Of a DNA stretch of 64,000 nt, positions 23,774 through 62,704 are shown one piece after another. The notes beneath the pieces are model-generated. The model had not been told where the DNA came from, did no database searches, and was given only the letters and a program-made list of their open reading frames with translations. The stretch covers positions 13,087 through 77,086 of the forward strand of contig CAZLQM010000002.1 of assembly GCA_964561945.1 (NCBI GenBank). The letters are read 5' to 3'. The stretch is from an uncultured Gammaproteobacteria bacterium. Its GTDB lineage: Bacteria > Patescibacteriota > Microgenomatia > CAYXHB01. The translations under genes were made by a program, and so were the position numbers. Positions within the stretch are counted from its first letter, which is position 1. Every line of letters starts with the position of its first letter.

Positions 23774-23785
23774 TACCATTAACCT

Positions 23786-24466: not shown

Positions 24467-24506
24467 TCAATCCTAATTTGAATATATAAACTATAATTCA
24501 TATTAG

Positions 24507-25688: not shown

Positions 25689-25783
25689 AACTCGTTATAC
25701 TTCCCACTTCCCCCTCCCAAATTCTAATGCTAGTATGATTCAAATTTTAAAAATTAATATTAAATTTCGGACAGCTAAGCACA

Positions 25784-44975: not shown

Positions 44976-45096
44976 CTCCTTTTATTTTCATATACAACCT
45001 CATTATCCTACTAATCCGCTATATTGTAAAAAGATCTTCACACCTTTCCGATTCAATAAAACACACCCTCACCATCATGCTAAAATTTTTGTAAAC

Positions 45097-45855
45097 ATGA
45101 AACATCGACTCTCCCTAGTCATCCGCATTGCTATTTTTATATTCCTCTGGCTATTTGGTGTTCCTTATATATTTAGCTTTTTTGCAGAAAAATCTCACCT
45201 CCTAAATCTCCCAGGTTTTGATTATCCCGACACCATTATTAGTCCCATAATTTTCCTAATGCTTTTCTATTTCTACTACCCAATACTAAAAAAATATCAT
45301 TTCAAACCCTGCACCTCTTCCGTATTTGCAGGATTAATTCTTTTTATCTCTGCATCATTATCATATCTCAACCTCTATTCTTGGTTTTATAACCTATACA
45401 TAAACGGTCATATCCTTAATCCATGGCTCCAACTTGCAATTATTTATACCATCCTAATCGGCATATATGGTGGACTATTTTTAGCAATATTTTCATACAA
45501 ATTCATAACCTCGCACAAATCTCTGATTCTAACTTTTTTTATCTTCAACACAACTTATTACATCCTCTATTACTACCTTTTTGCAAACTGGAGTATCTTT
45601 TCTTCCATCACTACAATTCTCGTCTTCCACGCTCTCAAGCTTTTTCTCCCACAAACAAGCATGATCATTGACGGCACCAACATCAGTCTATTTATCAATG
45701 ATTTTTCAGTCGGGATCAGCAAAACCTGTTCCGGTGTCATGCTTATTCTACTTTTTTTTATTCTATACTCACTTTTCTGTTTCAAAAACCTCAAAAATAT
45801 TAAACTACCAAAAACAATATTTTTTTTACTCATAGGCACACTTCCTCGGATTTAA
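45097..45855 (+). CDS. polytopic membrane protein, unknown function
   Basis: At least 7 hydrophobic helices. Start trimmed to MKHRL. A CSG tripeptide in a TM helix is vaguely reminiscent of exosortase-family motifs (speculative). Confidence 0.4.
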   Translation: MKHRLSLVIRIAIFIFLWLFGVPYIFSFFAEKSHLLNLPGFDYPDTIISPIIFLMLFYFYYPILKKYHFKPCTSSVFAGLILFISASLSYLNLYSWFYNLYINGHILNPWLQLAIIYTILIGIYGGLFLAIFSYKFITSHKSLILTFFIFNTTYYILYYYLFANWSIFSSITTILVFHALKLFLPQTSMIIDGTNISLFINDFSVGISKTCSGVMLILLFFILYSLFCFKNLKNIKLPKTIFFLLIGTLPRI

Positions 45856-46252
45856 GCAATAACTCTCAAATCTAACGAAGCCATTTACATTCATCAGTCC
45901 TCATAATCCACACATCCATACACCACATCCTCAAAAAATATCAATATCTCACCACTCCAAAAATATCTAGCATAACTTTTAAGTAATCCACATTTACTAC
46001 ATCGATAAGTAATTATTTCTTTAGAATTCTCCAATTTAGTAAATAATCCTCCTCCGCTTATCTTTGTAGTCCATTTGGATTTTACCGCACCGCCATATGC
46101 ATAGTCCGCGATAAAACCCGCTTCTCAAACACCTCCACATTCAGGACACTTTTGAGTTACTTCCACAAATTCTAAGTTTGATTTTAGCATATATTACCCA
46201 AACCCCTTGCCTCACTCAACTAAGAAACAAACCTCTACGATTACCCCAAGCA

Positions 46253-46756
46253 TCATTCTCCAACCGCTTTTTTGATTGTCTCAATATCAAGCTTTTTCAT
46301 TGGCATAAATGCTTCTGTTACAGCCTCAGATTTATCTGGATCTCTCATATACTCATCCAAGATCCTAGGCGTAACCTGCCATGTCACACCGAATTTATCT
46401 ATACACCAACCACATTGTTCCGCTTCAGGTACAGCTGAGAGCTTTTCCCAAAAGAAATCGATTTCTTCCTGAGTTTCACATTCAATAATAAAAGAAACCG
46501 ATCCATTCAGCTTAAATTGTTCAATCGGTCCTCCATTCAGAGCCATAAAACTTATCCCGTCTAGTTCGCATTCAATAGCCATGACAGAACCTTCAGGCCG
46601 TCCAGAAACTTCTTCAGAAGCCTTAGGCGCTCTTGTAACATCTCCAAGTTTGGCCTCATGATTACCGGGCGCTGATCCAAAGACATCTAAATAATACTTC
46701 ACTGCCTCTTCTCCGTCATTATTAACAAACCAAATACATGTAATCAATCTACTCAT
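46253..46756 (-). CDS. PhnB/YjdN-like VOC (glyoxalase-fold) family protein
   Basis: ITCIWFVNNDGEEAVKYYLDVFG and the overall pattern of the PhnB-like family. Confidence 0.65.
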   Translation of the reverse strand: MSRLITCIWFVNNDGEEAVKYYLDVFGSAPGNHEAKLGDVTRAPKASEEVSGRPEGSVMAIECELDGISFMALNGGPIEQFKLNGSVSFIIECETQEEIDFFWEKLSAVPEAEQCGWCIDKFGVTWQVTPRILDEYMRDPDKSEAVTEAFMPMKKLDIETIKKAVGE

Positions 46757-46998
46757 TCCACTTATTTTACTATATTGATTATAAAAATCTTCGTATTAAT
46801 ACTGTAAGAAATAAAACCAAATGCCCTACACCTAACCAATTCACATCTATTGAAAATATAATTATTGGCTCCCCAATTCGGCAGTTATGTTGTATCAATT
46901 GTTTCCCCAGGATCTACTAGCACAAATGAAGATAAAACTAGAGATCCTAAAGGAGCTACTAGGATCAGAATCACAATATGAAACTGTGGAGGTGAAAA

Positions 46999-47202
46999 AT
47001 GGACAATTTTGCAGATTCGCTGTATAAAATAAGAACTAGGCAAGGTAAGTTTGTTAGCCAAGTAAAGCTCTCAAAACTTTCTGGATACACTCAAACCTAC
47101 ATTTCGTTAATCGAAACGGAGAGAGTAAATCCAAGCAAACGTTGTAAAAGAGATCTTCTCCGAGCTTTGGGCGTAGATTCCCCTCATACCTATATTTCAT
47201 AG
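46999..47202 (+). CDS. XRE-family (Cro/C1-type) HTH transcriptional regulator
   Basis: LSKLSGYTQTYISLIETERVNPS matches the HTH_XRE pattern. 67 aa. Confidence 0.55.
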   Translation: MDNFADSLYKIRTRQGKFVSQVKLSKLSGYTQTYISLIETERVNPSKRCKRDLLRALGVDSPHTYIS

Positions 47203-47209
47203 AGAGAAT

Positions 47210-47600
47210 TAAGAAGATGTGTCGTCTTGGGTGCCCACCCTTGGCTTGCGGCCATCGTCTTGATTGTTTTGATAGAAGCGGTGAAACCCTAAGAAGTATC
47301 CGCAGGATCCCTTCAATATGAGTGATAATGCTCGAAGGGACGCCTAGACGTAACTAGGGATTGAGTCTAGGTAGAAGCCGTTGTTGCCCTAGCAAGGATG
47401 AGAGTGTAAGAACTGTACACACGGCAACCGTGCAGTCGCCAATGTGCAACCTCTTGAAAAGCCTGGGGTGAGGAAGAATCCAAGTCCTCAGATGCGTCCC
47501 TGAATGTAATTGCGGAGCTTCTATCAGCAAACACAAGACTACTAGGTATAAGGTTTTTCGGCATTAAATTGCCTAGGGGAACCTTATGCCTAATAAGGAA
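47210..47600. ncRNA. unclassified G-rich non-coding region with local hairpins (candidate structured RNA or element border/att region)
   Basis: ~400 nt with no convincing ORF. Composition unlike both host and neighbouring genes. Hairpins include CACGG-CAA-CCGTG. Confidence 0.25.
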
Positions 47601-47629
47601 AAAAATAATCAAATAACAATTTCAATCTG

Positions 47630-48286
47630 GTGCTAAACTATAGATATATGAACACATCCAAGAAAATTCAACTTACCCTCGTAATAATTGCCCTGATTGT
47701 TGTTGGTGTGTTGATCTGGAACAGGAAGAAACAAAGCCAGGTTGTAGCAAACATCAATAGTTATGAAGATTGTGTAGCTGCTGGCTATCCCATCATGGAG
47801 ATCTATCCAGAGCAATGTAAAACCCCAGACAACCGTACCTTCACCAGACAAATTTCAGCTACTGACGATTGGCAAGAACAAACCATTGAAGAAATTGGCC
47901 TTACCTTGCGTTATCCCGCCAACCTTATATATAGACAAGAAATTGCAGACAACGCTGGCACCATTCGAGCCGTTGGGTTTTACCTAGAGAACAATGATCC
48001 AAACAAACCTTACACCCTCTATGGACTCTACCAAGCAGATCGGCCAGCTACTATAGATGATCTAGAGAGAGCCAAGACTGAAATGGACACCGCCACTATC
48101 AAACCAGTGGAAGTTGATGGCTTTAGCGGTATTGAAGGATTGATCGAGGGTGAGAAAACCCGTTATATCACCACTCTACTAGTTGGCGATAAACTCTTCT
48201 CCGTTTCCACAATTCCACCAACTCAAGAAAACAAGACTATAACAGACAATATCTTAGCAACGTTTGCTTTTAACAATGATAACTAA
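47630..48286 (+). CDS. hypothetical secreted/membrane-anchored protein
   Basis: N-terminal TM/signal (IQLTLVIIALIVVGVLIW), no motifs. Confidence 0.4.
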   Translation: MLNYRYMNTSKKIQLTLVIIALIVVGVLIWNRKKQSQVVANINSYEDCVAAGYPIMEIYPEQCKTPDNRTFTRQISATDDWQEQTIEEIGLTLRYPANLIYRQEIADNAGTIRAVGFYLENNDPNKPYTLYGLYQADRPATIDDLERAKTEMDTATIKPVEVDGFSGIEGLIEGEKTRYITTLLVGDKLFSVSTIPPTQENKTITDNILATFAFNNDN

Positions 48287-48785
48287 CCTTGCATCTCAAC
48301 CCCTCATTTTGGTATTTTCCCTTGTCGTTTTGGCTGTTATCGCAGTATTGATTGGTAAAACTAAGCAAAAAACTAATCCTTCCAAATATAGCTACACCAA
48401 AAAAGATTTCTTCATGTCCCGAGCAGAACATGAGTGCTACGATGCCCTCATTCAAGCGGTTGGACACGACTACTATATCTTTGCCCAGGTACATCTACCC
48501 ACGATTGTCAGCCACACCATCAAAGGCCAGAGTTGGCATGGGGCGTTGAGTCACATCAACAGAAAGTCAGTTGATTTTGTTTTGTGTGATAAAAGCTATA
48601 TTTCCCCCAAACTAGCCATTGAGCTAGACGACAAGTCACACCAGGAGGAAGATAGAAAAATTCGGGATCAAGAGTTAGAGCGAATCTTATCCCAAGCAGG
48701 GGTTCCATTACTTCGTCTGGAGAATCACGGCAGTTTTGACAGTACAGCCATCCAAAAGCAAATTCAAGAAAAATTGCTCTCCTAA
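48264..48785 (+). CDS. DUF2726-family protein (restriction-endonuclease-like fold), N-terminal TM
   Basis: SRAEHECYDALIQAVGHDYYIFAQVHL ... VDFVLCDKSYISPKLAIELDDKSH...DRKIRDQELERIL matches the DUF2726 pattern. Confidence 0.6.
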   Translation: MLLTMITNLASQPLILVFSLVVLAVIAVLIGKTKQKTNPSKYSYTKKDFFMSRAEHECYDALIQAVGHDYYIFAQVHLPTIVSHTIKGQSWHGALSHINRKSVDFVLCDKSYISPKLAIELDDKSHQEEDRKIRDQELERILSQAGVPLLRLENHGSFDSTAIQKQIQEKLLS

Positions 48786-48833
48786 AACCAATTTTTATCG
48801 AGAGATATCTTTACTTTCGCTAGTGACAGACTA

Positions 48834-51263
48834 CTAGTGTTTTTTTACACGCTCCTCAATAATCTCCTGTAAAACCTTCAAGTCTGCCTCGTTCCATAGC
48901 CTAAACCGCACCTGCCCATACTTATTATCTCGATCCAGTACCGATTCTGACTTAGATAATCTCTCCCTCAACACGGCAATTTCTTCAGGTGTCGTAAACT
49001 GCAACTCCCCATATACCCAATGATTAGCGTAGTAATAAAACAAAATCATCTCATCGTCTTTTTTCAGACTATGATATGAACCTGCCCCGCCTTTTTGGAT
49101 ATACACCTCACCATCTGGGAACGTCTTATTTATCCATTCGGGAATACTAGCCACCGCACCCCGCACAAATTCACTCTTCACCCGAGCAATCGTTTCCTCT
49201 TCGGTTTCGGGCAACTTAATCCCTTTCTCCTTAATCTCTCCCACATTCCCTTGCTCAACCACCTTACTCGTAGCCCGCAATATCTGGGAAAACCACTCCA
49301 ACGCTGCCTCTCCATCCCGCTGCAACACCCGATCAATCTCTCGATTGTGCTTCACTGCATTGCGAAAATCTTTGTAAGCAATAAACCGTTTCTCCACCTC
49401 AAACTTAGATCTGAATATCTGCTCAAAGTATTTCCAGTTTTTCAGGATGATATTGGAGTAATCCATAATGTCACAAAACTCCAACAAATCCTTAACCGTC
49501 AGCTCTTCCCATTTCTTAGAGGGGTTCTTTTTTAGAAACTGCGTGATCTTCTTTTTAGCATTACCCTGCACATCAGAAGGTATCACCTTATCCCAATAAT
49601 CCTCACCCTCCTCATCCAAAAGCACCGCATTTATCAACGCCCGCAGTTGGATTTCTATCTCATCAATCGCCTTATTGGCATTATGTCCCGCCACCTGCAA
49701 AATCTTAGAACCCACCAGCCGCTCAAACTCATCGAAAATAGCCTGTGATCTATTCTGGATAAACTCACCATAGTCATTATTACGAATCGAGTCATCGTAG
49801 GAAATCAGTTGTGCATCCAACGCTTCCCTAAAATCTGGGTTTTCCTGATCATATTCTGCAAAATAGTCACTAGGGGCTTTCCTGCGAATCTCCTTGTTTA
49901 ATTCAGCAGGAATAAAACAGAAGTTGGATAACAAATACTCTCCAGGGATTTTGTTAGCTTTGAGATAGTGGCGGGGAAAGATGTGGTGTTTCTCAGGGCT
50001 ATTAAACTCAGCACAGATGTTTCGATCCAAAGCAAAAGCCTGGTTGGTTTTGAAGTGTCGAGGTTGACGTAAGGCCAACATACAGAAAAAAGCGTTGCGA
50101 ATAGCCGACTTGGTGCTGATCCTACTCTTGGCGATCTTGTCCTTATCCAACGTGATCGGATAACTAATCTTCACTTCCTTACCCTCAACCAGCTTATCAA
50201 ACAACACCCGCCGATCCTCTTCCATCCGTGTCTCACGGGAGGTAGCGTACCGCTCGCTCAATGCCGACTGCCAAAACCACTCATGCACTCGCTCAGTCAT
50301 CACTTTATCTAACGATCTCCCAGGGATCTTAAAGTACAAATAGGCCAGCAGTGAGATCATGGGTGGATACGGTACAAACTCGTATATCTTGGCTCCCAAA
50401 TTGTTAGACAAAAAATCAACCGATAGCTTGATAGCGTTGGCAATCTCTTCCCAGTGTTCCTTCAACTCTTCTTTGTTTAGCTGTAGTTGGTACGACTTCC
50501 TGCAATAACCCTTAATAATCAGTGATGCTGCATGAACCACCACCTCAGGCGGGATCTTGCCAAACCCTTTATCTTCCAAATACTTAGCCAACTTTAGGTA
50601 TTCAACCTTCAAGTCAAAATCCTCACCCCACGTACTAGCCACCACTAAGTCAAAAATAGATAGTCGTTTACCACCCTGATTGATCCGCTCAAATATCACA
50701 ATCGCCTCATCCAATTCCTTCTCCCGAACAAAGATAACTGATAACGGATAGCTGGAAAAAATGCTGTTACACTTATCAAAGATCCGTTTCCGTTGATCGG
50801 TTAGTTTGTTGTACATCTGGAACTTGTTGTCTCCCAAAATATCCCGCAGTGGAGCAGCGTTGTCATGTTCCCGATACCGAATCACAAATTTTTCCTTGTC
50901 AAAGTCAAAACAAATCTGAGAGTAATCAGTGCCGTTAATGGTTAAGCCCTTGATAGCAGCATAGAGGGAAGTTGCCCGTTGTTGGCCGTCCAAGATGTAG
51001 CGAATTGAAGTGTAGGTGTCAGGTGTGGGCAAATCCAGTTCGGCGATGTTTCGATAAAACAGGTTATATTTCTTGTCAGCATCCCAGACAAAAAAGCTTC
51101 CAATCGGATACTCCTTATAGATAGAATCCAACAACTTCACCACTTTAGATCGTTCCCACACAAAATCTCTCTGAAATCTAGGGATCCTCAAATGCCCATG
51201 CTCGATGTCATGGACAATATCTGATAGCTTTAACTCATCAACTTTTATTTTCTGTATCTGCAT
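48834..51263 (-). CDS. GmrSD-family type IV (modification-dependent) restriction endonuclease (DUF262 + DUF1524) with ~250-aa C-terminal extension
   Basis: DUF262 signature RIPRFQRDFVWE...LDGQQRATSL. DUF1524 His-Me signature SPEKHHIFPRHYL. Confidence 0.85.
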   Translation of the reverse strand: MQIQKIKVDELKLSDIVHDIEHGHLRIPRFQRDFVWERSKVVKLLDSIYKEYPIGSFFVWDADKKYNLFYRNIAELDLPTPDTYTSIRYILDGQQRATSLYAAIKGLTINGTDYSQICFDFDKEKFVIRYREHDNAAPLRDILGDNKFQMYNKLTDQRKRIFDKCNSIFSSYPLSVIFVREKELDEAIVIFERINQGGKRLSIFDLVVASTWGEDFDLKVEYLKLAKYLEDKGFGKIPPEVVVHAASLIIKGYCRKSYQLQLNKEELKEHWEEIANAIKLSVDFLSNNLGAKIYEFVPYPPMISLLAYLYFKIPGRSLDKVMTERVHEWFWQSALSERYATSRETRMEEDRRVLFDKLVEGKEVKISYPITLDKDKIAKSRISTKSAIRNAFFCMLALRQPRHFKTNQAFALDRNICAEFNSPEKHHIFPRHYLKANKIPGEYLLSNFCFIPAELNKEIRRKAPSDYFAEYDQENPDFREALDAQLISYDDSIRNNDYGEFIQNRSQAIFDEFERLVGSKILQVAGHNANKAIDEIEIQLRALINAVLLDEEGEDYWDKVIPSDVQGNAKKKITQFLKKNPSKKWEELTVKDLLEFCDIMDYSNIILKNWKYFEQIFRSKFEVEKRFIAYKDFRNAVKHNREIDRVLQRDGEAALEWFSQILRATSKVVEQGNVGEIKEKGIKLPETEEETIARVKSEFVRGAVASIPEWINKTFPDGEVYIQKGGAGSYHSLKKDDEMILFYYYANHWVYGELQFTTPEEIAVLRERLSKSESVLDRDNKYGQVRFRLWNEADLKVLQEIIEERVKKH

Positions 51264-51303
51264 ATCGTATTTTAGTAATTATTACTAAACTCAACACATA
51301 AGG

Positions 51304-54300
51304 CTATTTCTCTCCCGTCCAATCGCGGGCTAACAATTCTGCTTGCTCCAACATCGTCTTGGTTGCACTTTCCTGTTTATCTGGTGGATATTTGTACTTC
51401 TTCAACAACCGTTTTACATAAACTCGCAACCTAGCTTGAATACTCTCCTTAATCGTCCAGTCTATTGTTGTATTCTTGCGAAGCATCACCACCAACTCTT
51501 TAGCCATTGCCTTCAAGGTTTCATCTCCCAACTCTCGCACGGCACTCTCGTTGTTAGCTAGTGCATCATAAAAAGCCACTTCATCCTCAGTTAATCCCAA
51601 ATCTTCACCTTTGTTTTTCTCTGTCTTAATCTTCTTGGCCAGCTCTAACAATTCGGCAATAACCTGAGCTGCTTCAAGTGTGCGGTTTTGGTATTTCCTA
51701 ATCGTTTCCGCCAGCATTTCGGCAAAAGATCGAGACTTCACCAAATTGGTTCTTTCCATCATCTTTAATTCGTCATTCAAGAGTTTCTTTAACAGTTCCA
51801 AGGCCACGTTCTTGTGTTTCAAATTCTTCACTTCCTCTAAAAATTCCTCAGAGAAAATAGAAATGTCGGGAGCTTTGATGCCAGCTGCCGAGTAAATATC
51901 AACCACCGCATCAGAAGTCACCGCCGTTGAGACGATTTGTTTGATAGCTGCATCATAATCTTCATCTGTCGGGCCTCCTCCATGAGGTTCCATTTTGACT
52001 AATCCACTCTTAACAATCTGGAAGAATCCCACCTCGTCTTTAATCTCCAATGCCTTGTCGTGTGGTACTGCCAAAGAGAATGACTTAGATAGTTCAGTCA
52101 CCGCTTTCAAGTATCGTTTCTTTCCATCTGTTAACCCCAAAACAAAATCTGTAGCTCCCGAAATAACCTGAGTTCGCTCACCAGGAGTACCAGTAAAGTA
52201 TTTTTGATAGTCATATCCATGCAACATTCCCTTAACCACTTCATACTTTTCCATCAACACCGCCACCGCTTCATCCTGTGGGATAGCTGTTTCTTGTCTA
52301 TCGGTTTCGCTGTAGTAGGAGAGGGCTTCCTTCAGTTCAGGAGCAATGCCAATATAGTCAACGATCAAACCACCTTGCTTATCCTTATACACTCGATTCA
52401 CCCGAGCAATCGCTTGCATCAACCCATGCCCCTTCATCGGTTTGTCTACATACATAGTATGAAGAGAGGGCACGTCAAAACCAGTTAGCCACATGTCTCT
52501 TACGATCACCAACTTCAACTCATCCTCAGGATCTTTCATTCTTCGAGCCATTTCATCGAGTGCATGTTTAGGGCGAATGTGAGGCTGGAAGTTCATCGGA
52601 TCGGCAGCACTGCCTGTCATCACAACCTTGATAAACCCCTTGTTATCATCATCACTATGCCAATTGGGGCGAAGTTTAACAATCTCGTTATACAAATCCA
52701 CCGCAATTCTACGACTCATGGCCACGATCATACCCTTACCATCAATGGCTGATAATCTGTTCTCAAAGTGATCCACTAAGTCACGAGCTACCAAAGCAAT
52801 TCGTTTTTCCGATCCCACCATTGCTTCCAACCTTGCCCACTTACTCTTCAGTTTTTCCTTTCGCTCAACCTCTTCACCCTCGGTTAATTCTTCAAATTCT
52901 GGATCAATTCTTGGCTGTTCTTCTTTCTTCAATTCAATTCTGGCAAGTCTAGCTTCGTAATAGATCGGTACGGTAGCATTATCTTCAACTGCTCGTGTCA
53001 CATCATAAACATCAACATATTCACCAAACACTGCCCGAGTATTCCTATCCGTTAATTCAACAGGTGTACCAGTAAAACCAATAAACGAAGCGTTAGGTAG
53101 AGCATCACGCAAATGACGAGCAAACCCAGTGATAAATTCATACTGGCTTCGATGTGCCTCATCCGCAATCACCACAATGTTTTTCCGATCAGACAACATG
53201 GGGTATGAAGTATGGCCATTTTGAGGTAGAAACTTTTGGATAGTGGTAAAGATAACCCCACCAGAGGCTACATGTAGTAATTCTTGTAACTGTTCTCGAC
53301 TATCAGCTTGCTTGGGGGTTTGCCTAAGCAATTCACTACATCGAGAGAAAGTACCGAAAAGCTGTTGATCCAAGTCATTGCGATCCGTCAACACAACTAA
53401 AGTCGGATTGTTTAGCTCCTGCACCACTTTGCCTGAATAAAACACCATTGTTAGACTTTTACCTGATCCCTGCGTATGCCACACCACACCAGCCCGCCTG
53501 TCTCCCTCCTCTTTGGTAGCCTTCATAGTACTTTCGACTGCTTTATTAGTCGCATAGTATTGATGATAAGCCGCTGCCTTCTTGATAGTTTTATCGCCAT
53601 CCGTATCAAAGACAATAAAGTTTGAGATCAAATCCAGTAAACGACTCTTATCAAAAATTCCTTTAAGTAAGACTTCCAACTGTGGCAAGGCAGTAGGGGC
53701 AAGTTCTTCACCATCAACAGTTCGCCAACGAGTAAACCATTCGATACTTGCCGATATTGTACCCACTCGAGCATCAATTCCGTCACTGATGACGCAAAGT
53801 TCGTTATAGGCAAAGAGGGTAGGAATATCTTGTTTGTAGGTTTGAATCTGGTTGTAGGCGTTTTTTACTGTTGCCTTCTCATCCCCAGGATTCTTCAATT
53901 CAATCACCACTACAGGCAAACCATTCACAAACACTATTACATCTGGCCGTCTGTTGCGGTTGTTTTCAATGATCGTATATTGATTGACTGCCAAAAAGTC
54001 ATTTGATTCTAAATCCCCAAACTCAGCCAATTTCACCTTATCGCCAGCCACCGAGCCATCATCCCGCATGTATTCAACATCCACCCCATCACGCAAGTAT
54101 CCATGAAAGATCTTGTTGTTCATTACTAAACTAGGGGTGGCGTGGGCAACCTGCACCACCTTCTTAAATGCTTCTTCCTTGGCATCTTCGGGAATATCTG
54201 GGTTGAACTTGTTGATAGCACTTCGAAGTCTATCTACCAACACCACATCACCATAGCTCTCACGTTCTGGGTTCTCACCGTCCGGAGGAGGGGCAATCTC

Positions 54301-54384
54301 AGGGCCTCCAACCACTGAGTATCCCAGCTCTTCGAGCCAATCAAGGGTTGCTAGTTCTAGATCTGTTTCTGTGTATTTAGCCAT
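51304..54384 (-). CDS. hsdR: type I restriction enzyme R subunit
   Basis: N-terminal [22 protein letters not shown], helicase motif I TQGSGKS, motif II DEAHRSQ, 1026 aa. Confidence 0.95.
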
Positions 54385-54386
54385 TT

Positions 54387-55679
54387 TTATCTGCTTTTTT
54401 TTAACTTATTCAACATATTATTGAAGGTGTCTCTTAAGTCATCATAAGTGAATATCTTTATATTTTTTAGTGAGTTATTTAGTCTCTTAAAGTCATTTTT
54501 CATTTTTACCTTTTTGCTGTTACTAAAACTGCTGGTTTGTTTGCCTGCCAACATTGATCTAGAGCCAGCGATGATATAGACACTCGGCCTTACAGCATCA
54601 ACATTTATATTGTATTCATCTCTTATATTTTTGATTACTTCTGCTTCTCTGCCAACAACGGCATCAATATAATTTTCAGATTGTGAGACAGCTTTAGCTA
54701 TATCAGCATGCCAATAAAAATTGTTTCTTCCCGAATCGAAACTTAGAATCTGTGTTAGATGAGTTTTGATTTCATAAATATCCAAAAAACTATAAGTGTC
54801 CAAAAGTATGAAGTCTGGATAATTTACTTTTTTGTCTCCGAATACTTTTTCCTTTTCAAATCTATCGACATACCCAAAGTTAAAATACAAAATGTTATCT
54901 CTTAGGAAGCCTTGCCATTTATCTTCTAATCGTTTTGAGTTAGATTTTTGATTCAAGATCTTGTCGAAATCCTCAAGGATTTTTTCGAAATATATATAGT
55001 CAACCTCTTTCTTTGTAGCAACAATTTTTTCTTTGCTCTGAGTAGTCTGGTTTTTTAATGAGTTTGATAAAAGACTCGTGAGCTTATTCACCTCATCATC
55101 TGTCAAATCCGTGGCATTAACACCATATCGACTGAAAATTCTTGATATTTCCCCAGTCGGATATCTTTGTGTTGCTTTCTTAAATGCTGAAGGGAAAATA
55201 TCATATAAAAGATTATTTACAATCGTTTCTGACTCATCCTTATGCTTCGTAAGCATGTCTTTTATTTGTCTACGAGCTTTTTCAAGCACTTCGTAACTGA
55301 GAACAATTGTTCTTTTTAGTATCTGAGATGAACGTTTTTGTGATACTACCAATCTGTTAACACTGGGGTACTCCTTTTGGAGTTTATATAAAAGTGGGCT
55401 AAGCTCTCTGGTGAATCCATACCCCGTCTTATATGATTTAAGAAAACCTGGCGGTAACGTTTTTATAACAGCAACATCTTCATAACAGATTTCTTTGATA
55501 TTGTTATACTTTTGTTTCCCATCCCTCAGATTAAAAGGAAAGTGTGCTTCTTTATGCTTATAGACTTCTCTGGATTTCCTATCTATCGCTCCAGATTCAT
55601 CTGCATAGAAAAACACTGTTTTATTTTTTAGTAGCTGCTTTTGATACTCTGCCTTATCGACTTTTACGTTTTTATGCAT
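54387..55679 (-). CDS. protein with C-terminal Shedu/DUF4263-like PD-(D/E)xK nuclease-fold domain and unknown N-terminal domain
   Basis: [17 protein letters not shown]...[27 protein letters not shown]...[17 protein letters not shown] has the D...D/ExK...Q..Y arrangement of DUF4263. Start is 2 nt upstream of hsdR and 7 nt downstream of the ATPase. Confidence 0.5.
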
Positions 55680-55686
55680 ACATTGT

Positions 55687-57102
55687 TTACAGATTTATTT
55701 CTTTCAAATACTCACGCATTTTTTCTATTGAACTTCTCAGTGAAGTTGGACCTGGCCTACCATTATCCCGAGCGTGATGAATCTGATTTCTTATAAAAGT
55801 GTGTACACTAACCTCATTCGGATTACCCATCCAAGGTGAATTGGCTGGTTCATTATGTACTCGCTGGAAATAATCTACATCGTATGGTTTAATCTTTTTT
55901 CCTTGTCCGTTTTGATAATATAACTCCTCATATAGTTCGTTATGATATTCCTCGGTAGCCAATCCAAAAGCTAAAAAGTTGACTTCGCTAGACGAAATAT
56001 AGGGCAACAGTCTATCCTCCACTGGAACTACTGACACATCATTACCATTTTTTTTCAAAACATTTGCCTGCACTGATTCATTGAAAAACAACTGTTTTAC
56101 TAACAAGGGTGAATGTGTGGTTATTATTATTTGTGCAGTTTTAGAAAATTCGATCAATAAATCTACAAACTTACCTTGAAGCGATGGATGTAAATGCAAC
56201 TCTGGCTCGTCTATCAACACGATAAGTTGTTTACCACTCTGTTGAGAAAGATAGAAAGAATACAGCAATGAAAAGATCATCTCATAACCAGATCCCATCA
56301 TATCTAAAGGAATTTGTTGATTGTTTTCCTTCTTCTTAGCAAAAAAACACTTTCCAAATGGTTGCCAATTGTCAACAAAGTTGAGTGAAATCTTCGAACC
56401 GCTCACTTCCTCGAATTTATTGATTGCACTTACCAATAATTCATTTTCCACTGAAGCCTTAACCGCATCCAGCTTCGCACTTTCGTCTTCAATCCCATCT
56501 TCTTTACCCTTAATATACTGATAGTTGAAGTCCTCCATTAAACGATCAAAGCGGGTAGAGTTGTATGTCCCAGATCTAATTTGAAAAGTCCTATTTCGAT
56601 CCAAAAATAAAATATCATTTTCACTAAATCTTTGCCCCTTAAAAGGGTTGTTTACGTTAACACGAAGATCAGGACTGTTATCGCTAGGCTTCGACTGATT
56701 ATCTGCCTTAATAAATTTTTGATCGCTGACAACAATCGAAGATAAATATGATTGATTTCCTCTAGATCTAACACCCGCCTCAAAAGAAAAACCCTTCGCT
56801 TGAAATGAGCCTCTCGGCATTGTACCGTCAACCTCGAAGTTTCCACTAGCTAAGACTTCGATATGAGATTTCTTGTCAGGATCATCAAAATCCTGCAAAG
56901 AGAAACTCTCTGCCTTGTAATTCAAAAGTGGTAGTGCAATAGCATCGAGTAACGCTGTTTTTCCACAACCATTCTCACCAACAAACACAGAAAGGCCACT
57001 GCCCTCATTAGTGTCATCAGGAATGTTAATATCATCCAAAGTAAATATGCTTTCCGATGGAAATAGCCTAAAATTTTGTACTTTTATTGTTTTTATAAAC
57101 AT
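55687..57102 (-). CDS. ABC-type (AAA_15/AAA_21-family) ATPase with possible HEPN-like (R-x4-H) C-terminal tail; PrrC/OLD/PtuA/AriA-like
   Basis: IKVQNFRLF, Walker A GENGCGKTALLDAI, LIVLIDEPELHLHPSLQ (Walker B/D-loop), IIITTHSPLL (H-loop) and C-terminal FIRNQIHHARD. Confidence 0.6.
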   Translation of the reverse strand: MFIKTIKVQNFRLFPSESIFTLDDINIPDDTNEGSGLSVFVGENGCGKTALLDAIALPLLNYKAESFSLQDFDDPDKKSHIEVLASGNFEVDGTMPRGSFQAKGFSFEAGVRSRGNQSYLSSIVVSDQKFIKADNQSKPSDNSPDLRVNVNNPFKGQRFSENDILFLDRNRTFQIRSGTYNSTRFDRLMEDFNYQYIKGKEDGIEDESAKLDAVKASVENELLVSAINKFEEVSGSKISLNFVDNWQPFGKCFFAKKKENNQQIPLDMMGSGYEMIFSLLYSFYLSQQSGKQLIVLIDEPELHLHPSLQGKFVDLLIEFSKTAQIIITTHSPLLVKQLFFNESVQANVLKKNGNDVSVVPVEDRLLPYISSSEVNFLAFGLATEEYHNELYEELYYQNGQGKKIKPYDVDYFQRVHNEPANSPWMGNPNEVSVHTFIRNQIHHARDNGRPGPTSLRSSIEKMREYLKEINL

Positions 57103-57104
57103 AC

Positions 57105-57797
57105 TTAGCCAATAAGATCGTCAACTTTAATTTCACCCGCCAACATTAATGGCATAATTTTATTAATTATCGCTTTTATGCTTTTATTTCTGTCATGGAT
57201 TCTTAACATTTCTTCAGCAGTACTAGAAGATTGCTCGATAGGGACACCTAATAACTCCACATATTGGAGAGAACTAATAAAATTGACTACCTTATCTTGT
57301 TCTTCCAGAGTAGGTACTGCAATTTCGAACTCAAACAAATCATACTTATACAATTCAGGATAGGTTGAACCGTTCGCAACCTTATCAAGATACAACTTAT
57401 TCACCTTTAACCAGTAGGCGAGGTATTTTGGCCTTATCATTGGGCCACACTCGAAGTTAAGAAACCCTTGATTTGTGGCCATTGGAACGGAGTTAATAAC
57501 GACACAACCAACAGGTGCTCTTTTTGACAACATCACAGTTCCTGGCTGAAGAATTTTTGCTGAGCTACTTGCTATACCTTCATGAGTTACATATCTTTCT
57601 GTCGAACTCACATAGAGTTGTCCATCTAGATTTGTGATTTCTTTTGGGGTTAACCATGGGATATTCCCTCCCCAGTAGTTATCGTTTCTAGTACTCGGTG
57701 TACTACCACTGCTGACATTTTTAATAATGCCATCTTTTGAAGGCATTAGAGTACTTTTTAACCACTTTGTCGGTTGATCTAAATATGGTTTAGCCAT
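57105..57797 (-). CDS. hsdS: type I R-M specificity subunit, single-TRD (half-size) form
   Basis: GSTPSTRNDNYWGGNIPWLTPKEI...LQPGTVMLSKRAPVG pattern of an HsdS target-recognition domain. 230 aa. Confidence 0.85.
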   Translation of the reverse strand: MAKPYLDQPTKWLKSTLMPSKDGIIKNVSSGSTPSTRNDNYWGGNIPWLTPKEITNLDGQLYVSSTERYVTHEGIASSSAKILQPGTVMLSKRAPVGCVVINSVPMATNQGFLNFECGPMIRPKYLAYWLKVNKLYLDKVANGSTYPELYKYDLFEFEIAVPTLEEQDKVVNFISSLQYVELLGVPIEQSSSTAEEMLRIHDRNKSIKAIINKIMPLMLAGEIKVDDLIG

Positions 57798-59316
57798 TTT
57801 TTACTTTCAACAAATTTTCTTTAACTAATAGTGATAACTTTGTAACTTCATTTAAACGTCTTTCAATAATATCCATAGAGGTTACTAGCTCATCTTGACT
57901 TACCTCAATCTTTTCCTCATCACTAAAACCAACATACCTACCAGGAACCAGGGCATATTGATGTTCAGCGATTTCTGACAATTTTGCAGAGTAAGTAAAA
58001 CCAGAGGCATTTATATATTGTGGTTGAGTTTTCCATTTTTTATATTCATTGACTATTCGTGAAATTTCTTCGCTCTTAAATACCTTATGCGTTCTATCTT
58101 CCAGCACACCCCATGATCGAACATCAACAAACAACACCTCCCCTTGTCGGTTCCTCTCATTTGTCCTTTTGTTTCTTGTTACAAACCAGAGTGATGCTGA
58201 AATTTGTGTGTTGTAGAACAATTGTGTGGGCAGTGATATAACACAATCTATTAAATCGCTATCAACCAATGACTGTCTTATTTGTTTTTCAGATTTCTTA
58301 TTTGTTGACAATGATCCATTTGCAAGAACAAACCCAGCGATGCCTGTAGGTGAGAGGTGATGGATAAAATGCTGAATCCAAGCATAGTTAGCATTGCCAG
58401 TGGGCGGAGTGCCGAATTTCCACCGCACATCATCTTTGTATTTCTCTCCACCCCAGTCACTATCATTGAAAGGAGGATTGGCCAAAACAAAATCAGCCTT
58501 TAGATCTGGATGCTGATCTTTGGCGAAACTATCGGCATTTCCCTCACCTAAATTCCCCTCGATACCTCGAATAGCCAAGTTCATTTTGGCTAACTTCCAA
58601 GTAGTCGGATTGCTCTCTTGTCCGTATACCGCAATATCACCAACTCTACCGCCATGCTCCTCTACAAATTTCTCGCTCTGAACAAACATCCCACCACTAC
58701 CACAGCAGGGATCAAATACACGGCCTTTGTAGGGCTCTATCATCTGTACCAACAGCTTTACCACAGAAGCAGGAGTGTAGAACTCACCGCCACCTTTACC
58801 CTCGGCACTGGCAAATCTACCGATAAAGTATTCATACACACGGCCTAACAAATCCTTTGACTTTGATTCTTTATCACCCAAACCAAGAGAGCTAAAAATA
58901 TCAATAATTTCACCCAATCGTTGTTTGTTGAGATCAGGGCGAGCATACCTTTTAGGGAGAACGCCCTTAAGGCTCGGGTTTTCCTTTTCGATGGCGATCA
59001 TGGCATCATCCACAATCTTGCCGATTTCTGGCTTCTTGGCGTTTTGCTTTAGGTAATCCCAGCGGGCAATCTCTGGCACCCAAAATACATTTCTCGCCTT
59101 GTAGGCGTCTTTGTCTTCCCACTCACCGTCATAGGCTTCTGTGTCATTCTTGATGGATTGATAGGTTTCTTCGAAAGAATCGGAGATATATTTGAGGAAA
59201 ATAAGGCCAAGCACCACATGTTTATATTCAGCAGGATCCATGTGGCCACGCATCTTATCTGCTGCTGCCCATAATTTCTTTTCGAAACCAAGATTAGCTG
59301 ATGTTTGTTTTGTCAT
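57790..59316 (-). CDS. hsdM: type I R-M N6-adenine DNA methyltransferase subunit
   Basis: HsdM N-terminal domain, SAM motif DPCCGSGGM and catalytic VLANPPFN. Start trimmed from 59424 to the MTKQ Met to remove overlap with the Xis-like gene. Confidence 0.9.
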   Translation of the reverse strand: MTKQTSANLGFEKKLWAAADKMRGHMDPAEYKHVVLGLIFLKYISDSFEETYQSIKNDTEAYDGEWEDKDAYKARNVFWVPEIARWDYLKQNAKKPEIGKIVDDAMIAIEKENPSLKGVLPKRYARPDLNKQRLGEIIDIFSSLGLGDKESKSKDLLGRVYEYFIGRFASAEGKGGGEFYTPASVVKLLVQMIEPYKGRVFDPCCGSGGMFVQSEKFVEEHGGRVGDIAVYGQESNPTTWKLAKMNLAIRGIEGNLGEGNADSFAKDQHPDLKADFVLANPPFNDSDWGGEKYKDDVRWKFGTPPTGNANYAWIQHFIHHLSPTGIAGFVLANGSLSTNKKSEKQIRQSLVDSDLIDCVISLPTQLFYNTQISASLWFVTRNKRTNERNRQGEVLFVDVRSWGVLEDRTHKVFKSEEISRIVNEYKKWKTQPQYINASGFTYSAKLSEIAEHQYALVPGRYVGFSDEEKIEVSQDELVTSMDIIERRLNEVTKLSLLVKENLLKVKNG

Positions 59317-59344
59317 AATTTTCTTAATTCTCTTATTTAATTTT

Positions 59345-59536
59345 CTATCTATTACGCGAGATGTACGCTTCGATGTCTTTCTTGCGATACCGTCTATCTC
59401 CCACACCTTTGCGATTGCCCACACGGACGGCTTTGAGTAATCCCTGCCTGTCCCATCGCCGAAGCGTCTGGGTGCTTACATTCAAAATCTTTGCTGCTTG
59501 CTTAATGGAAAGCAATTCCTCAAGTTGTTCATTCAT
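59345..59536 (-). CDS. excisionase/MerR-type HTH (HTH_17) DNA-binding protein
   Basis: LSIKQAAKILNVSTQTLRRWDRQGLLKAVRVG. Confidence 0.65.
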   Translation of the reverse strand: MNEQLEELLSIKQAAKILNVSTQTLRRWDRQGLLKAVRVGNRKGVGDRRYRKKDIEAYISRNR

Positions 59537-59843
59537 ACAAGTTAATCTTTATTATACAAAATTGTTCAAACAAAAAGAATGTATAAATCTAGTTAGTGGC
59601 TAGTTTATTACCCCTACTTATTAACTGGATTCCTATTAACTCCAAAGACTATTTCTTACTGATTTTGCCTAGAAGTAATAGACTTGAAACAGAAATAACT
59701 AGGGATGTTCATAACCCTAGTTACATTTACAAAATATGTGTATGTAGGGATATAAACCCAAGGCTGACAACATCTCAGACAGACATGCTTTAAATTCAAT
59801 GGAGATCAAAATGTACAATCCTGCTGGGGAGGGGTATGCCTGA

Positions 59844-60083
59844 TCACTTATCTTCTTTCTTACTAAACAACGTTTCCTTAACTGGATAGTCATTGCTTCC
59901 ATATTCATCCAAAAAATCTTCAATCGCTTTTTGTGTAAACCTATACTTCCCTTTAGTGCCAGGCAACTTAACGTACTTGATTTGTTCATTACGACACCAA
60001 CGCCTTACGGTTTCACCGCTAACGCTAAACATTTTCATTAGATCTTCAACTGTGTACTTAAACTCAAGATTTATGTTGGACAT
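59844..60083 (-). CDS. excisionase/AlpA-type HTH (HTH_17) DNA-binding protein
   Basis: LMKMFSVSGETVRRWCRNEQIKYVKLPGTKGKYRF. Start trimmed to MSNIN. Confidence 0.6.
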   Translation of the reverse strand: MSNINLEFKYTVEDLMKMFSVSGETVRRWCRNEQIKYVKLPGTKGKYRFTQKAIEDFLDEYGSNDYPVKETLFSKKEDK

Positions 60084-60397
60084 AATAAGTAGGATTGTAA
60101 ACATTTTATGCACGCAATGCAACTAGTGCTTGACATTCAGTTAATAATTGTTAATAATGAGGTTATGTTGCATAACATGTATAACGTGCATAATAAGAAG
60201 GGATGTCAAACAACCAAGAGTGAATGGTTGGATGTACTAGCCCAGAAGATCGCCGAAGTTCGGTTATCAGAACTTGGGTTTAATTTCATCCCAGGCATTG
60301 CCCCTTACTTCAAAAGGTTCAGGAAAAGTCTGGAGGCTAAGGCCTTCATAGTTAAGAGTGTGAGTTTAGTAAGAAATGATCCAAATACTATAAAAAG

Positions 60398-60715
60398 ATG
60401 AAAAAACGTGCTTACGGTTTCGTTAGGTGGAACAAAGAGAAAAACTCAACTCCCCCTCTCGAAACACAGAAAGCACGCATCAATGACTACTGCAACAAAA
60501 ATAAACTCGAATTGGTAGAAACTTTTGTTGACACTTCATCCCCCGTTCATAGTGTGTTCGATCAAATGATGTCTAGGTGTAGGAAAAAAGACTCAATCCA
60601 AGAGATTGTAGTCACTAGCTGGGACAGGATTTCTGATGACGAAACCGAATTTTGCCTCATCGAAACTATCCTAGATCGAAAACATATTAAGTTAATCAAA
60701 TTGGAGGAACTATGA
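60398..60715 (+). CDS. resolvase N-terminal-domain-like protein lacking catalytic serine
   Basis: Collinear with serine-recombinase catalytic domain (..ELVETFVDTSS...IQEIVVTSWDRISDD), but the YxRVSxxxQ position reads FVRWNKEKN. Confidence 0.4.
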   Translation: MKKRAYGFVRWNKEKNSTPPLETQKARINDYCNKNKLELVETFVDTSSPVHSVFDQMMSRCRKKDSIQEIVVTSWDRISDDETEFCLIETILDRKHIKLIKLEEL

Positions 60716-61176
60716 AAAACAAAAAACAAACCAAGAAAGCAGTGGTGTACGCCAAAGTAGCATCACCAGCAGTAGATACTACCCAACAATCAACTGATTC
60801 ACAGGAAAGGGCATGTAGGGAGTGGGCAAGGCAAAATGGTTACGAAATTGTCGGCGAGTATCAAGACGTTTGCTTCAATGACTCAAAACTAGACGACAGA
60901 AAAGCATTGATTGATACCATTGCGAGATGTCAGAGCAAAACTAGCCCGATTGACGTATTGCTTGTTACAGATTTGGATAGGTTATCCAGAAACACCGTTG
61001 AGCTACTTTTTATCAAAAGCCAGATTGATTTGAACGGCACAAAAATAATTACTGTAAACCAGCAAATGACAGAAGATTTCACAAAAGGCCAGCTATTCGA
61101 ATCTGTTATCGCAAGTGCTAATGCTTTTTCTAGAACAATTGAAAGGAGGAAATATGAAAAAAGCAGTAATCTATAA
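60712..61176 (+). CDS. resolvase-domain paralog (N-terminal domain only, catalytic Ser apparently replaced)
   Basis: Residue-by-residue paralog of the downstream recombinase N-domain (AVVYAKVASP vs AVIYNRVSDA; VLLVTDLDRLSRN vs VLLVIDTDRLARN). SD GGAGGA upstream. Confidence 0.5.
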   Translation: MKNKKQTKKAVVYAKVASPAVDTTQQSTDSQERACREWARQNGYEIVGEYQDVCFNDSKLDDRKALIDTIARCQSKTSPIDVLLVTDLDRLSRNTVELLFIKSQIDLNGTKIITVNQQMTEDFTKGQLFESVIASANAFSRTIERRKYEKSSNL

Positions 61177-62644
61177 TCGCGTATCTGATGCGGGACAACT
61201 TGAGGGACAATCCTTAGAGGTACAGCAAGAGTTGTGTGCTAAATGGGCACGAGAGCACCAGTATCAAGTAGTAGGCGTGTTTACCGATGCAGCCAAGAGT
61301 GGCACCAAAACAGTCGGGCGTGAGGCTTTGGATGATGCCATTATTAGATGTACAGACAAATCTGATCCAGTTGATGTGTTACTTGTCATTGATACAGATA
61401 GACTTGCCAGAAACGAGGTTGATCACTTCTTTATCAAAAATGAATTGAAGAAAACCAACACTCGAATAGTGGCTATCAATCAACCGATGATAAATGATAC
61501 TGCTGAAGGCCAGTTTTTCGAAACCATCATGGCTGGCACCAATGCCTTTTATAGTAGATTGACAGGTAGAAAAGTTAAGAAAACCTTAGAGAAGAAATGC
61601 CGAGATGGTGATTGGCCAGGCCCTCCGCCGTTAGGTTATGTTAACGCCAACATTGGCACCAAAGACAAACCTCATCGAGTTATAAAGATTGATCCAGAAC
61701 GAGGAAAATACTTGACTGAGATGTTTCGGCTGTTTAGCACGGATAAATACAGTGTCGATCAGATCCGAGATATGCTCTATGAGGATGGATTGAGATCCAA
61801 AAATGGCAAAAAAGTGTCTCGCAGTTGCCTCTACAGCTACCTCAAAAATGTTTTCTATATTGGCAAGTTCGTATATAAGGATGAAGAGTACAGAGGAAAT
61901 CACAAACCACTTACCACCAAGACGATCTTTGATCTATGTCAGAAGATAATGGAGAGAAACAACCACAACGCCTGTAGACGAAGGAAATACAAATGGTTGC
62001 TTACAGGTGTGGCCTACTGTCATAAATGTGGCTCCAGACTGTATTGCAGCCATAACCACAAAAAGAAGATGGCCTACTATCACGGCTCATACCCTAAAGG
62101 TTGTAAGCAATATATACCATTGGAAGAGTTAGAGGATTTAGTAGCCGAAGAGTTGAAAAACATCAAGTTTTCAGAGGAGTTTAAGCAAAAGATACATGAC
62201 AAAGCCAAAGAGTTGATCCAACAGACAAGAGAGTCCCGAAATGAGGAGGTTCAGCGTCTAAGGAACAAGGTTAAGGCTCTAGAGACAAGAAGAAACATCC
62301 TAGAAGATAGCCTGCTGGATGGAACAGTTGATAAGGCCACTTTTAAGAGGAAGCATGGGGAGATCAACTATGAGATCCAGGGATACGAGAATGATATTGC
62401 CAATATCGAAAACCAGAGAGGCTTTGATGTTAATCTAGCCTCCGAGATACTCGATCTGGATACCAATCTATACGAAACGTACCAGAACGCCGTTTTTGAG
62501 GCCAAGAAGCATTATCTATCTATTTTCTTTGAAAAAATCGAGGTAGCAGACAAAAAGATCCAACATGTAACCTATTCGCCATTGTTTCAAAAACTACTTG
62601 ATGCCGAACAGGTTACAGTTAGTTCGAAAAGGCTCCCCGACTAG
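61154..62644 (+). CDS. large serine recombinase (integrase)
   Basis: Resolvase domain IYNRVSDAGQ...DRLARN, recombinase domain, Zn-ribbon CHKCGSRLYC, coiled-coil. Strong SD AGGAGG at 61145-61150. Stop codon lies inside the 3' end of tRNA-Asn. Confidence 0.85.
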   Translation: MKKAVIYNRVSDAGQLEGQSLEVQQELCAKWAREHQYQVVGVFTDAAKSGTKTVGREALDDAIIRCTDKSDPVDVLLVIDTDRLARNEVDHFFIKNELKKTNTRIVAINQPMINDTAEGQFFETIMAGTNAFYSRLTGRKVKKTLEKKCRDGDWPGPPPLGYVNANIGTKDKPHRVIKIDPERGKYLTEMFRLFSTDKYSVDQIRDMLYEDGLRSKNGKKVSRSCLYSYLKNVFYIGKFVYKDEEYRGNHKPLTTKTIFDLCQKIMERNNHNACRRRKYKWLLTGVAYCHKCGSRLYCSHNHKKKMAYYHGSYPKGCKQYIPLEELEDLVAEELKNIKFSEEFKQKIHDKAKELIQQTRESRNEEVQRLRNKVKALETRRNILEDSLLDGTVDKATFKRKHGEINYEIQGYENDIANIENQRGFDVNLASEILDLDTNLYETYQNAVFEAKKHYLSIFFEKIEVADKKIQHVTYSPLFQKLLDAEQVTVSSKRLPD

Positions 62645-62704
62645 GACTCGAACCTAGAACCTTGAAGTTAACAGCTTCCTGCTCTGCCATTGAGCTATCG
62701 GGGA
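62633..62704 (-). tRNA. tRNA-Asn (GUU)
   Basis: Manual fold gives acceptor UCCCCGA/UCGGGGA, D-arm GCUC-AAUGGC-AGAGC, anticodon loop CUGUUAA and T-arm CUAGG-UUCGAGU-CCUAG. Confidence 0.85.

Follow-up and report, generated by a model that had tools for sequence, protein, structure and literature searches.

Between two small genes of the window (the whole stretch of DNA analysed here, 64,000 nt), a gap at 47203-47647 holds a segment that is probably the gene of a large structured RNA, which we call type A. The gap lies between the gene of a small XRE-family regulator (46999..47202) and a 212-aa open reading frame (ORF) with a signal-peptide-like start (47648..48286). A sequence-only reading of this locus had named the same two neighbours and had described a G-rich non-coding stretch of ~400 nt between them. 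We found that this description is correct and that the unit shared with homologues is narrower, at 47203-47610 on the + strand, about 405 nt without a gene. The G content of the segment is 26.0% as compared to 13.1% for the + strand of the whole window, and the segment, G-rich within a strongly C-rich + strand, ranks first in G among all 408-nt windows of the 64 kb. CTAG palindromes occur at 14.7 per kb in the segment and at 2.3 per kb in the window. When we compared the folding free energy with that of shuffled controls, as the sequence-only reading had proposed, z was -3.85 for the + strand and -3.84 for the - strand, and 0 of 100 dinucleotide shuffles folded as well.

The DNA belongs to a Microgenomates bacterium of the candidate phyla radiation (CPR), as suggested by the names that homologues of neighbouring proteins carry, and two contigs are identical to the window. 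Homologues of the segment that differ from it are found in L066, which has a complete copy (87% identical); in L067, a Curtissbacteria contig whose copy (92% identical) is cut by the contig end; and in L027, a contig of 1557 nt whose copy was detected by nhmmer at E=1e-50. The L027 copy has 79% mean column identity in the first alignment, is about 70-79% identical to the window and contains compensatory changes. Type A homology starts right after the XRE stop codon (~47203) and stops near 47610, within an A-rich tract. At most 3 nt separate the segment from the XRE stop codon in the window, L066 and L067, and segment and gene share a strand there; in L027, type A is retained without an XRE gene upstream.

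No convincing protein-coding gene had been seen in the segment by the sequence-only reading, and we came to the same result. The sole ORFs of at least 40 aa overlap each other on the minus strand:

47354..47536, - strand: ORF of 60 aa, overlaps the 81-aa ORF, no Pfam match at E<=1
47367..47612, - strand: ORF of 81 aa, overlaps the 60-aa ORF, no Pfam match at E<=1

Substitutions counted by position modulo 3 (16/17/23 in L066, 8/9/7 in L067 and 40/38/50 in L027) display no codon periodicity, and the indels between homologues are mostly 1-2 nt. When the 60-aa antisense ORF was searched with HMMER against 1.84 billion proteins, there were two matches only. The better one (P0276, E=4e-31) is a predicted protein of 1817 aa with about 30 tandem copies of a ~56-aa unit; the unit is a ~168-nt DNA repeat with an open frame, and each copy matches the antisense ORF weakly, so that the score is inflated by repetition. 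Both matches appear to be repeat artefacts, the better one being the one that was inspected. The repeat of P0276 is odd in its own right.

At gathering thresholds, Rfam 15 found only 4 tRNAs in the whole window. A permissive scan of 46700-48000 (1.3 kb) returned three chance-level matches (E 4.6-9.8), one of which alone touches the RNA, at its 3' tail. The families covered include RNase P, tmRNA, SRP, 6S, cobalamin, ROOL, GOLLD, HEARO, raiA and OLE, as well as group I and II introns and self-cleaving ribozymes, and the homologue loci scanned in this way also contain no family. This agrees with the sequence-only reading, which had seen no consensus blocks of RNase P, tmRNA, SRP or cobalamin riboswitches and had suggested the Rfam scan. 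ARAGORN reported the 4 tRNAs elsewhere in the window, no tmRNA and nothing in the segment, and blastn of the segment against phage and plasmid collections gave no match.

To determine the fold, we aligned the four type A sequences (window, L066, L067 and L027). RNAalifold on the window and L027 gave 97 pairs, 16 of them compensatory; the model used below has 88 pairs and was refined by hand from covariation. It contains 16 helices including one loop-loop pseudoknot, and 97.5% of its pair cells in the four-sequence alignment are standard. We found that 16 of the 88 pairs are changed on both sides (double changes), as compared to 6.4±1.8 in column shuffles, where 0 of 500 reach 16, and to 0-1 in each of six controls in which the model was slid along the alignment. 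Compensatory substitutions in four sequences thus exceed the controls, and the segment is a conserved structured RNA. The earlier suggestion of a structured regulatory RNA stands in its first half, with covariation in three independent homologues; its second half, "regulatory", was not borne out. There are 23 G-U cells and 3 A-C cells, so that the paired share is 97.5% if the + strand is read as RNA and 91.1% if the - strand is. This wobble asymmetry points to selection on the RNA strand and, together with the G-richness, places the RNA on the + strand, which is the strand of the XRE gene. The parts of the model are as follows:

47203..47610, + strand: whole type A unit, set by the limits of homology; no Rfam match; 16-helix model
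47229-47232/47237-47240, + strand: leader hairpin Ha, in all four homologues, only 75% paired
47242-47245/47251-47254, + strand: leader hairpin Hb, in all four homologues, one G-C to A-U compensatory change
47258-47279 with 47517-47538, + strand: closing helix P1, 20 pairs, 98.3% paired cells, 3 double changes and G-U variants
47299..47304 (UCCGCA) with 47511-47516 (UGCGGA), + strand: P2, near-invariant sequence
47309..47339, + strand: hairpin P3/P3a, CCCUUC...GAAGGG with inner GAG/CUC, 100% paired, 3 double changes across L066, L067 and L027
47340..47343 (ACGC) with 47494-47497, + strand: P4, C-G to U-A compensatory change in L027
47344..47370, + strand: hairpin P5, a simple 6-bp stem (CUAGAC/GUCUAG), 2 double changes (L067 and L027)
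47380..47399, + strand: hairpin P6, whose loop 47388-47391 pairs with the P5 loop
47355-47358 with 47388-47391, + strand: P5-P6 loop-loop pseudoknot of 4 bp, 100% paired
47400..47455, + strand: P7 domain enclosing P8 and P8b, 100% paired; double changes: one in P7, two in P8o, one in P8b
47412-47436, + strand: P8, tip CACGG-CAA-CCGUG at 47420-47432
47462..47492, + strand: variable hairpin P9, 7 compensatory pairs by RNAalifold
47539..47610, + strand: 3' tail with the block GCCUAGGGGAWCCUUAUG (47571-47588), hairpin Ht (47582-47587/47593-47598) and an A-rich end

The architecture is that of a long closing helix, P1, around nested helices P2-P9, with two small hairpins before this core and a conserved tail after it. 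In P2, covariation is uninformative because the sequence hardly varies, and RNAalifold offers its 5' strand an alternative pairing with GCGG(U/A) at 47278-47282. P9 is unrelated in sequence between the window and L027 and forms a stem-loop in both. In the pseudoknot, a G-C pair of the window is A-U in L027 (CUAGGG/CCCUAG to CUAGAG/CUCUAG). The 3' half of the tail is almost invariant in the window, L066 and L027; its 5' half is variable. Ha and Hb are also kept in L027, the locus that has no XRE gene. The weaker parts of the model are the outer part of P1 and hairpin Ha. Three hairpins picked out by the sequence-only reading are all present: CACGG-CAA-CCGTG at 47420-47432, GGGTG..CACCC (GGGTGCCCACCC) at 47229-47240, and CTAGG..CTAG at 47344-47370, which is P5. 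The likeness of the last to a tRNA T-arm is superficial; neither ARAGORN nor Rfam sees a tRNA or tmRNA there.

In contig L068, which encodes an XRE protein 95% identical to that of the window, we found that the same position is occupied by a different sequence. By blastn, window and L068 are 95.3% identical over 46868-47189, 93.1% over 47647-48771 and 95.6% over 48856-50906 (GmrSD); between these flanks, 47190-47646 and L068 501-1212 show no similarity. The breakpoints are clean, the left one 13 nt before the XRE stop codon and the right one at the ATG of the next gene, and the position is hereafter called the slot:

47190..47646, no strand assigned: exchangeable cassette, replaced by an unrelated 712-nt segment (L068 501-1212, with a type B RNA)

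In L035 and L036, where the secreted protein is 87% and the XRE protein 78-85% identical to those of the window, the slot is filled by ~650 nt of type B. The order there is orf46 (a 46-aa ORF upstream of the XRE gene), XRE, non-coding DNA and secreted protein, with DUF2726 beyond in L036. Type B (~650 nt) has a fold z of -5.85 and few compensatory changes, its variation being concentrated in hairpins, and no Rfam match was found for it.

A metagenome scan with the XRE family, whose alignment has 36 members, gave 29 loci. Among these, every XRE gene of 75-89% identity is followed on its 3' side by 390-1180 nt of ORF-free, GC-rich, G-skewed DNA, and seven of these loci have in common a sequence of ~420 nt, type C. 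Type C has nine double changes, whereas shuffles have 3.8±1.4 and slid controls no more than 3, which is moderate support from covariation. A fourth sequence, type D, fills the slot of L042. Distant XRE homologues (56-63% identity) have no such region; a protein gene lies directly 3' of them, a glycosyltransferase gene in L052 and L056 and apparently its homologues in several other loci. The C-terminal tail of the XRE protein tracks the RNA type in the loci examined, ending in ...TYIS* with type A, ...SQV* with type B and ...KFQV* with type C. Upstream of types B, C and D, there is a leader of ~35 nt with a GGGYGWAAWTCCC hairpin that ends in CARGGTTTAG; in type C loci it falls inside the XRE reading frame, which is extended to 80 aa. 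The leader may be a junction, a processing site or a start point, since unrelated RNA sequences start right after GGTTTAG. Comparison of types A, B, C and D by sequence, k-mers and covariance models found no homology beyond the ~35-nt leader of B and D, and a covariance model built on 147 positions and 40 pairs of the type A core found, even with filters off, the four type A copies only and none in B, C or D. The copies are:

L068:520-1165, L036:855-1500, L035:1241-1889, also L070 and L071: type B
L037:1690-2117, L044:2738-3197, L039, L040, L041, L043 and L072:10244-10795: type C
L036:859-893, L042:2708-2742, L037:1661-1695 and the same region of L043: ~35-nt leader

In L012, the secreted-protein gene is followed directly on its 3' side by 277 nt without an ORF (3631-3907, GC 0.45, G-skewed), which extend as far as the contig end. 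The arrangement is like that of L027; the sequence resembles none of types A, B and C and is a possible further RNA type.

The slot is part of a large-serine-recombinase integrative island, as its recombinases, its end modules, its variable cargo and its composition show. On the + strand, GC skew is -0.28 to -0.58 over 1-46 kb and about -0.15 from ~46.85 kb to the window end, the shift at ~46.85 kb being from about -0.45 to about -0.15. In the first 46 kb, G is about 8-16% whatever the gene orientation; even genes on the + strand, such as those at 21473-27988 and 43126-44325, are rich in C. This skew is far beyond the usual replication skew, and the island boundary is sharply marked. The island and its genes are:

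46865..62704, no strand assigned: island, supported by the skew shift, Pfam matches of cargo and recombinases, and modules shared with L072
46887..47027, + strand: orf46, 46 aa, no Pfam or PHROG match
46999..47202, + strand: XRE-family helix-turn-helix (HTH) regulator, 67 aa (HTH_31, HTH_3)
47648..48286, + strand: secreted protein, 212 aa, N-terminal hydrophobic segment resembling a signal peptide
48264..48785: DUF2726 protein
48834..51263: GmrSD
51304..54384: HsdR
54387..55679: Shedu-like SduA_C protein, 430 aa
55687..57102: AAA_15 ATPase (AAA_15/AAA_21), 471 aa
57105..57797: HsdS
57790..59424: HsdM
59345..59536 and 59844..60122: two small HTH_17-like ORFs
60712..61176: resolvase
61115..62644: large serine recombinase
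62631-62704: tRNA-Asn

The left module consists of orf46, XRE and the RNA; the right module consists of the HTH_17-like genes, the resolvase and the large serine recombinase (Pfam domains Resolvase, Recombinase and Zn_ribbon_recom at 60712-62644) and abuts tRNA-Asn. The same two modules flank other cargo in L072, a 225-kb contig whose recombinase is 83% identical in amino acids to that of the window, in the order orf46-XRE, non-coding DNA, Na/Ca exchanger, secreted-protein homologue, Mrr, HTH_17, resolvase and recombinase. These islands measure 9-16 kb and their cargo is variable, with defence genes in the window. The 3' end of the large serine recombinase gene overlaps tRNA-Asn by 14 nt, the genes being convergent; because the L072 recombinase has no adjacent tRNA-Asn, the tRNA-Asn region may be where the window island is inserted. 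Orf46 (MLYQLFPQDLLAQMKIKLEILKELLGSESQYETVEVKNGQFCRFAV) and the start of the XRE gene have 29 nt in common, and tblastn places orf46 upstream of XRE in all RNA-linked loci (73-96% identity) and in distant loci (40-43%); its product is possibly a small partner of another protein, for example a co-regulator or one of a toxin-antitoxin-like kind. Within the cargo, the SduA_C protein and the AAA ATPase are inserted between hsdR and hsdS-hsdM of a type I restriction-modification (R-M) operon (54387-57102).

Taken together, these data suggest that 47203-47610 on the + strand is probably the gene of a ~405-nt, independently folding non-coding RNA of an undescribed family that would act in trans for the island. 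To judge from its four distinct sequences, type A would be a new class. We propose that the RNA would be transcribed with the XRE gene or just after it, would fold into a compact particle and would act in trans for the island; with much less confidence, we favour for it a role as a determinant of specificity, immunity or conflict. Such a role would account for non-homologous alleles being swapped between conserved flanks, since alleles of this kind between near-identical flanks are the classic signature of diversifying selection, as in phage immunity regions, specificity subunits and defence loci. Our best guess is a trans-acting island RNA under diversifying selection. A wider proposal, possible and at this stage rather doubtful, is that Microgenomates serine-recombinase islands have a dedicated RNA slot after orf46-XRE, in which non-homologous, ornate RNAs of 400-650 nt (types A, B and C, perhaps with others) are exchanged like immunity cassettes and would be the specificity determinants of a new RNA-based island immunity, incompatibility or anti-phage conflict. 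The slot RNAs might work as self-assembling particles or as partners of small proteins.

Several observations weigh against this interpretation. The distinct type A sequences are four only, one of them truncated, and most of the covariation comes from L027 because three of the four are close to one another (87-92%). The pseudoknot is supported by a single compensatory event. A promoter and terminator scan at the segment found nothing above chance, and nothing in the 3' tail resembles an intrinsic terminator. Two conserved blocks, searched as exact patterns in the viral collection, gave no match, and degenerate multi-block scans by way of pseudo-proteins from the antisense ORF gave none in viral contigs and none in metagenome contigs; the absence of further copies in these scans means that the family is rare or poorly sampled. 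Type C, at z = -1.03, folds no better than shuffled sequence, and type D (z = -0.07) has no sign of structure. That types A, B and C are functional analogues is suggested by their position alone, as they have no motif or fold in common.

Among known systems, ROOL and GOLLD are often found in prophage or mobile contexts. Like type A, ROOL, GOLLD, raiA and OLE are non-coding RNAs of hundreds of nt with multi-junction folds and tertiary contacts. ROOL, GOLLD and OLE are reported to form homo-oligomers (PMC12286853). Type A has palindromic CUAG-rich loops, and the loop-loop contact of its model could in principle be intermolecular. Unlike these RNAs, type A has no match to their Rfam models; it is smaller than ROOL or GOLLD and, in contrast to these two, is tied to orf46-XRE in a serine-recombinase island of CPR bacteria, in a slot shared with non-homologous RNAs. 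The exchange itself resembles that of heteroimmune phages, in which a non-homologous segment beside a repressor-type gene is exchanged between near-identical elements: the L068 swap lies beside the repressor-type XRE gene, and its flanks are near-identical. In P4 (CI RNA) and P1/P7 (c4 RNA), the specificity determinant is an RNA of less than 100 nt that acts by antisense pairing. In contrast, the slot RNAs have complex folds of 400-650 nt, the XRE protein beside the swap is still 95% identical, and target complementarity of the RNA was not found within the window. An immunity function of type A is pure conjecture. HEARO/omega RNA (IscB-TnpB), IS110 bridge RNA and the non-coding RNAs of retrons and defence-associated reverse transcriptases (DRT) are, like type A, structured RNAs (150-400 nt) fixed beside a conserved gene of the element, and the sequences of such guide or scaffold RNAs diverge fast between lineages, as those of the slot RNAs do. 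However, IscB, TnpB and the IS110 recombinase are all absent here, and no reverse transcriptase is consistently linked to the RNA; the fixed neighbours of type A are the 46-aa ORF and the 67-aa HTH protein only, and the HEARO model has no match.

We weighed the proposed trans-acting RNA against other explanations and judge that type A is not an attachment (att) site, a cis-acting leader, a pseudogene or the template of a reverse transcriptase. The explanation that survives best, though we think it unlikely, is that the segment belongs to the orf46-XRE operon as its 3' untranslated region and acts in cis, as a stabiliser, an attenuator or a platform for processing, with no function of its own. 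In favour of this, the segment begins directly behind the XRE gene and on its strand in three loci (window, L066 and L067), no promoter of its own is conspicuous, a G-rich ORF-free region follows every examined XRE homologue of at least 75% identity, and the XRE tail varies with the RNA type. However, type A persists with compensatory changes in L027, whose short contig shows no XRE gene upstream of it, a fold of 16 helices with a pseudoknot is far beyond what a stabiliser needs, and replacements of 400-650 nt by non-homologous sequence are hard to explain in this way.

It is more improbable still that the structure acts as single-stranded DNA, as an origin of replication or transfer or as a recombination site of the excised island. 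The sequence-only reading had placed the segment at the left end of the island and had considered it as an attachment or recombination region. It lies near that end, but not at the extreme end, because orf46 and the XRE gene stand between it and the boundary at ~46.85 kb. No copy of the tRNA-Asn region, no right-end repeat and no direct repeat was found near the RNA, a test that is weak because serine-recombinase sites share few bases. Such sites are about 50 bp in length, and 400 bp is too long for one. Among the Pfam matches, no relaxase or Rep gene is evident, and the nested multi-junction fold, the G-richness and the 23-to-3 G-U asymmetry are typical of RNA. What can be said for a DNA-level role is that the island is mobile and the segment near one of its ends, that contigs L067, L041 and L043 break in the slot or just after it, and that CTAG palindromes are enriched.

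That the segment is a 5' leader or riboswitch of the secreted-protein gene at 47648 is very improbable. The slot does lie directly upstream of that gene and on its strand in the window, L035, L036 and L068, but the genes after type A are convergent in L066, type A is downstream of the secreted-protein gene in L027, and in L044 and L072 the gene behind type C, for a Na/Ca exchanger, is convergent. Of 26 other genome loci of the secreted protein, none has an nhmmer match to type A or B, and a GC-rich ORF-free stretch beside the gene is present only in L012; no riboswitch model matches the segment.

We give as little credence to a template or partner RNA of a defence reverse transcriptase of the retron or DRT-like kind. 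In L027, the RNA abuts a reverse-transcriptase ORF (L027:801-1556, - strand) with a YADD motif and an RVT_1 match, and close relatives of this protein (one of them 99% identical) score 4.7e-138 and better against PADLOC RT_UG13b. The L027 gene is, however, convergent with the RNA strand, there is no reverse transcriptase near type A in the window, L066 or L067, and a family member in L032 (4001-5320) is found in a type I R-M operon without type A RNA. The L027 enzyme, a UG13b-type reverse transcriptase of a family that belongs to type I R-M operons, was rejected as a partner of the RNA. Relatives of it are present in L030 and L032, and the L032 operon has the order HsdM, a gene of unknown function, HsdS, reverse transcriptase and HsdR.

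A divergent housekeeping or large RNA of a known family (RNase P, tmRNA, 6S, ROOL, GOLLD or HEARO) that Rfam missed in a CPR genome is no more credible. RNAs of the CPR can be aberrant, and in size and G content the segment would suit an RNase P RNA or a tmRNA, but the permissive search found no Rfam match better than E=4.6, ARAGORN found nothing, and neither the replacement by unrelated sequence in a relative with 95% identity nor the location in an island would be expected of such an RNA. Least credible of all is a decayed or frameshifted protein-coding gene, which the sequence-only reading had listed. In its favour are the ORFs of 60 and 81 aa that overlap on the minus strand. Against it, Pfam gives no match, substitutions have no 3-periodicity, indels are mostly of 1-2 nt, the protein library gave only repeat-artefact matches, and the substitutions are instead compensatory across helices.

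The locus gives one well-supported new RNA class (type A), a strong candidate (type B) and a moderate candidate (type C), all of them from CPR bacteria. Few bacterial RNAs are large and intricately folded, and new biochemistry has come from several of them, as from HEARO, which proved to be omega RNA, and from ROOL and GOLLD, which form cages; to our knowledge, the non-coding RNA content of the CPR is almost unexplored. The swap of unrelated RNAs between flanks of 93-96% identity in a defence island points to a role at the RNA level in conflicts between element, phage and host. A rule by which further such RNAs may be searched for is to look at the DNA downstream of this XRE family.

Outside the island, the window has a tRNA-Ile with anticodon UAU (tat) at 7910-7982, which is uncommon in bacteria; bacteria usually read AUA with a lysidine-modified CAU tRNA. 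Further to the right, 44975-46250 is AT-rich (GC 32-37%) with only short or doubtful ORFs, and on the identical contig L001, two parts of it, about 600 and 400 nt long, are without a gene call.

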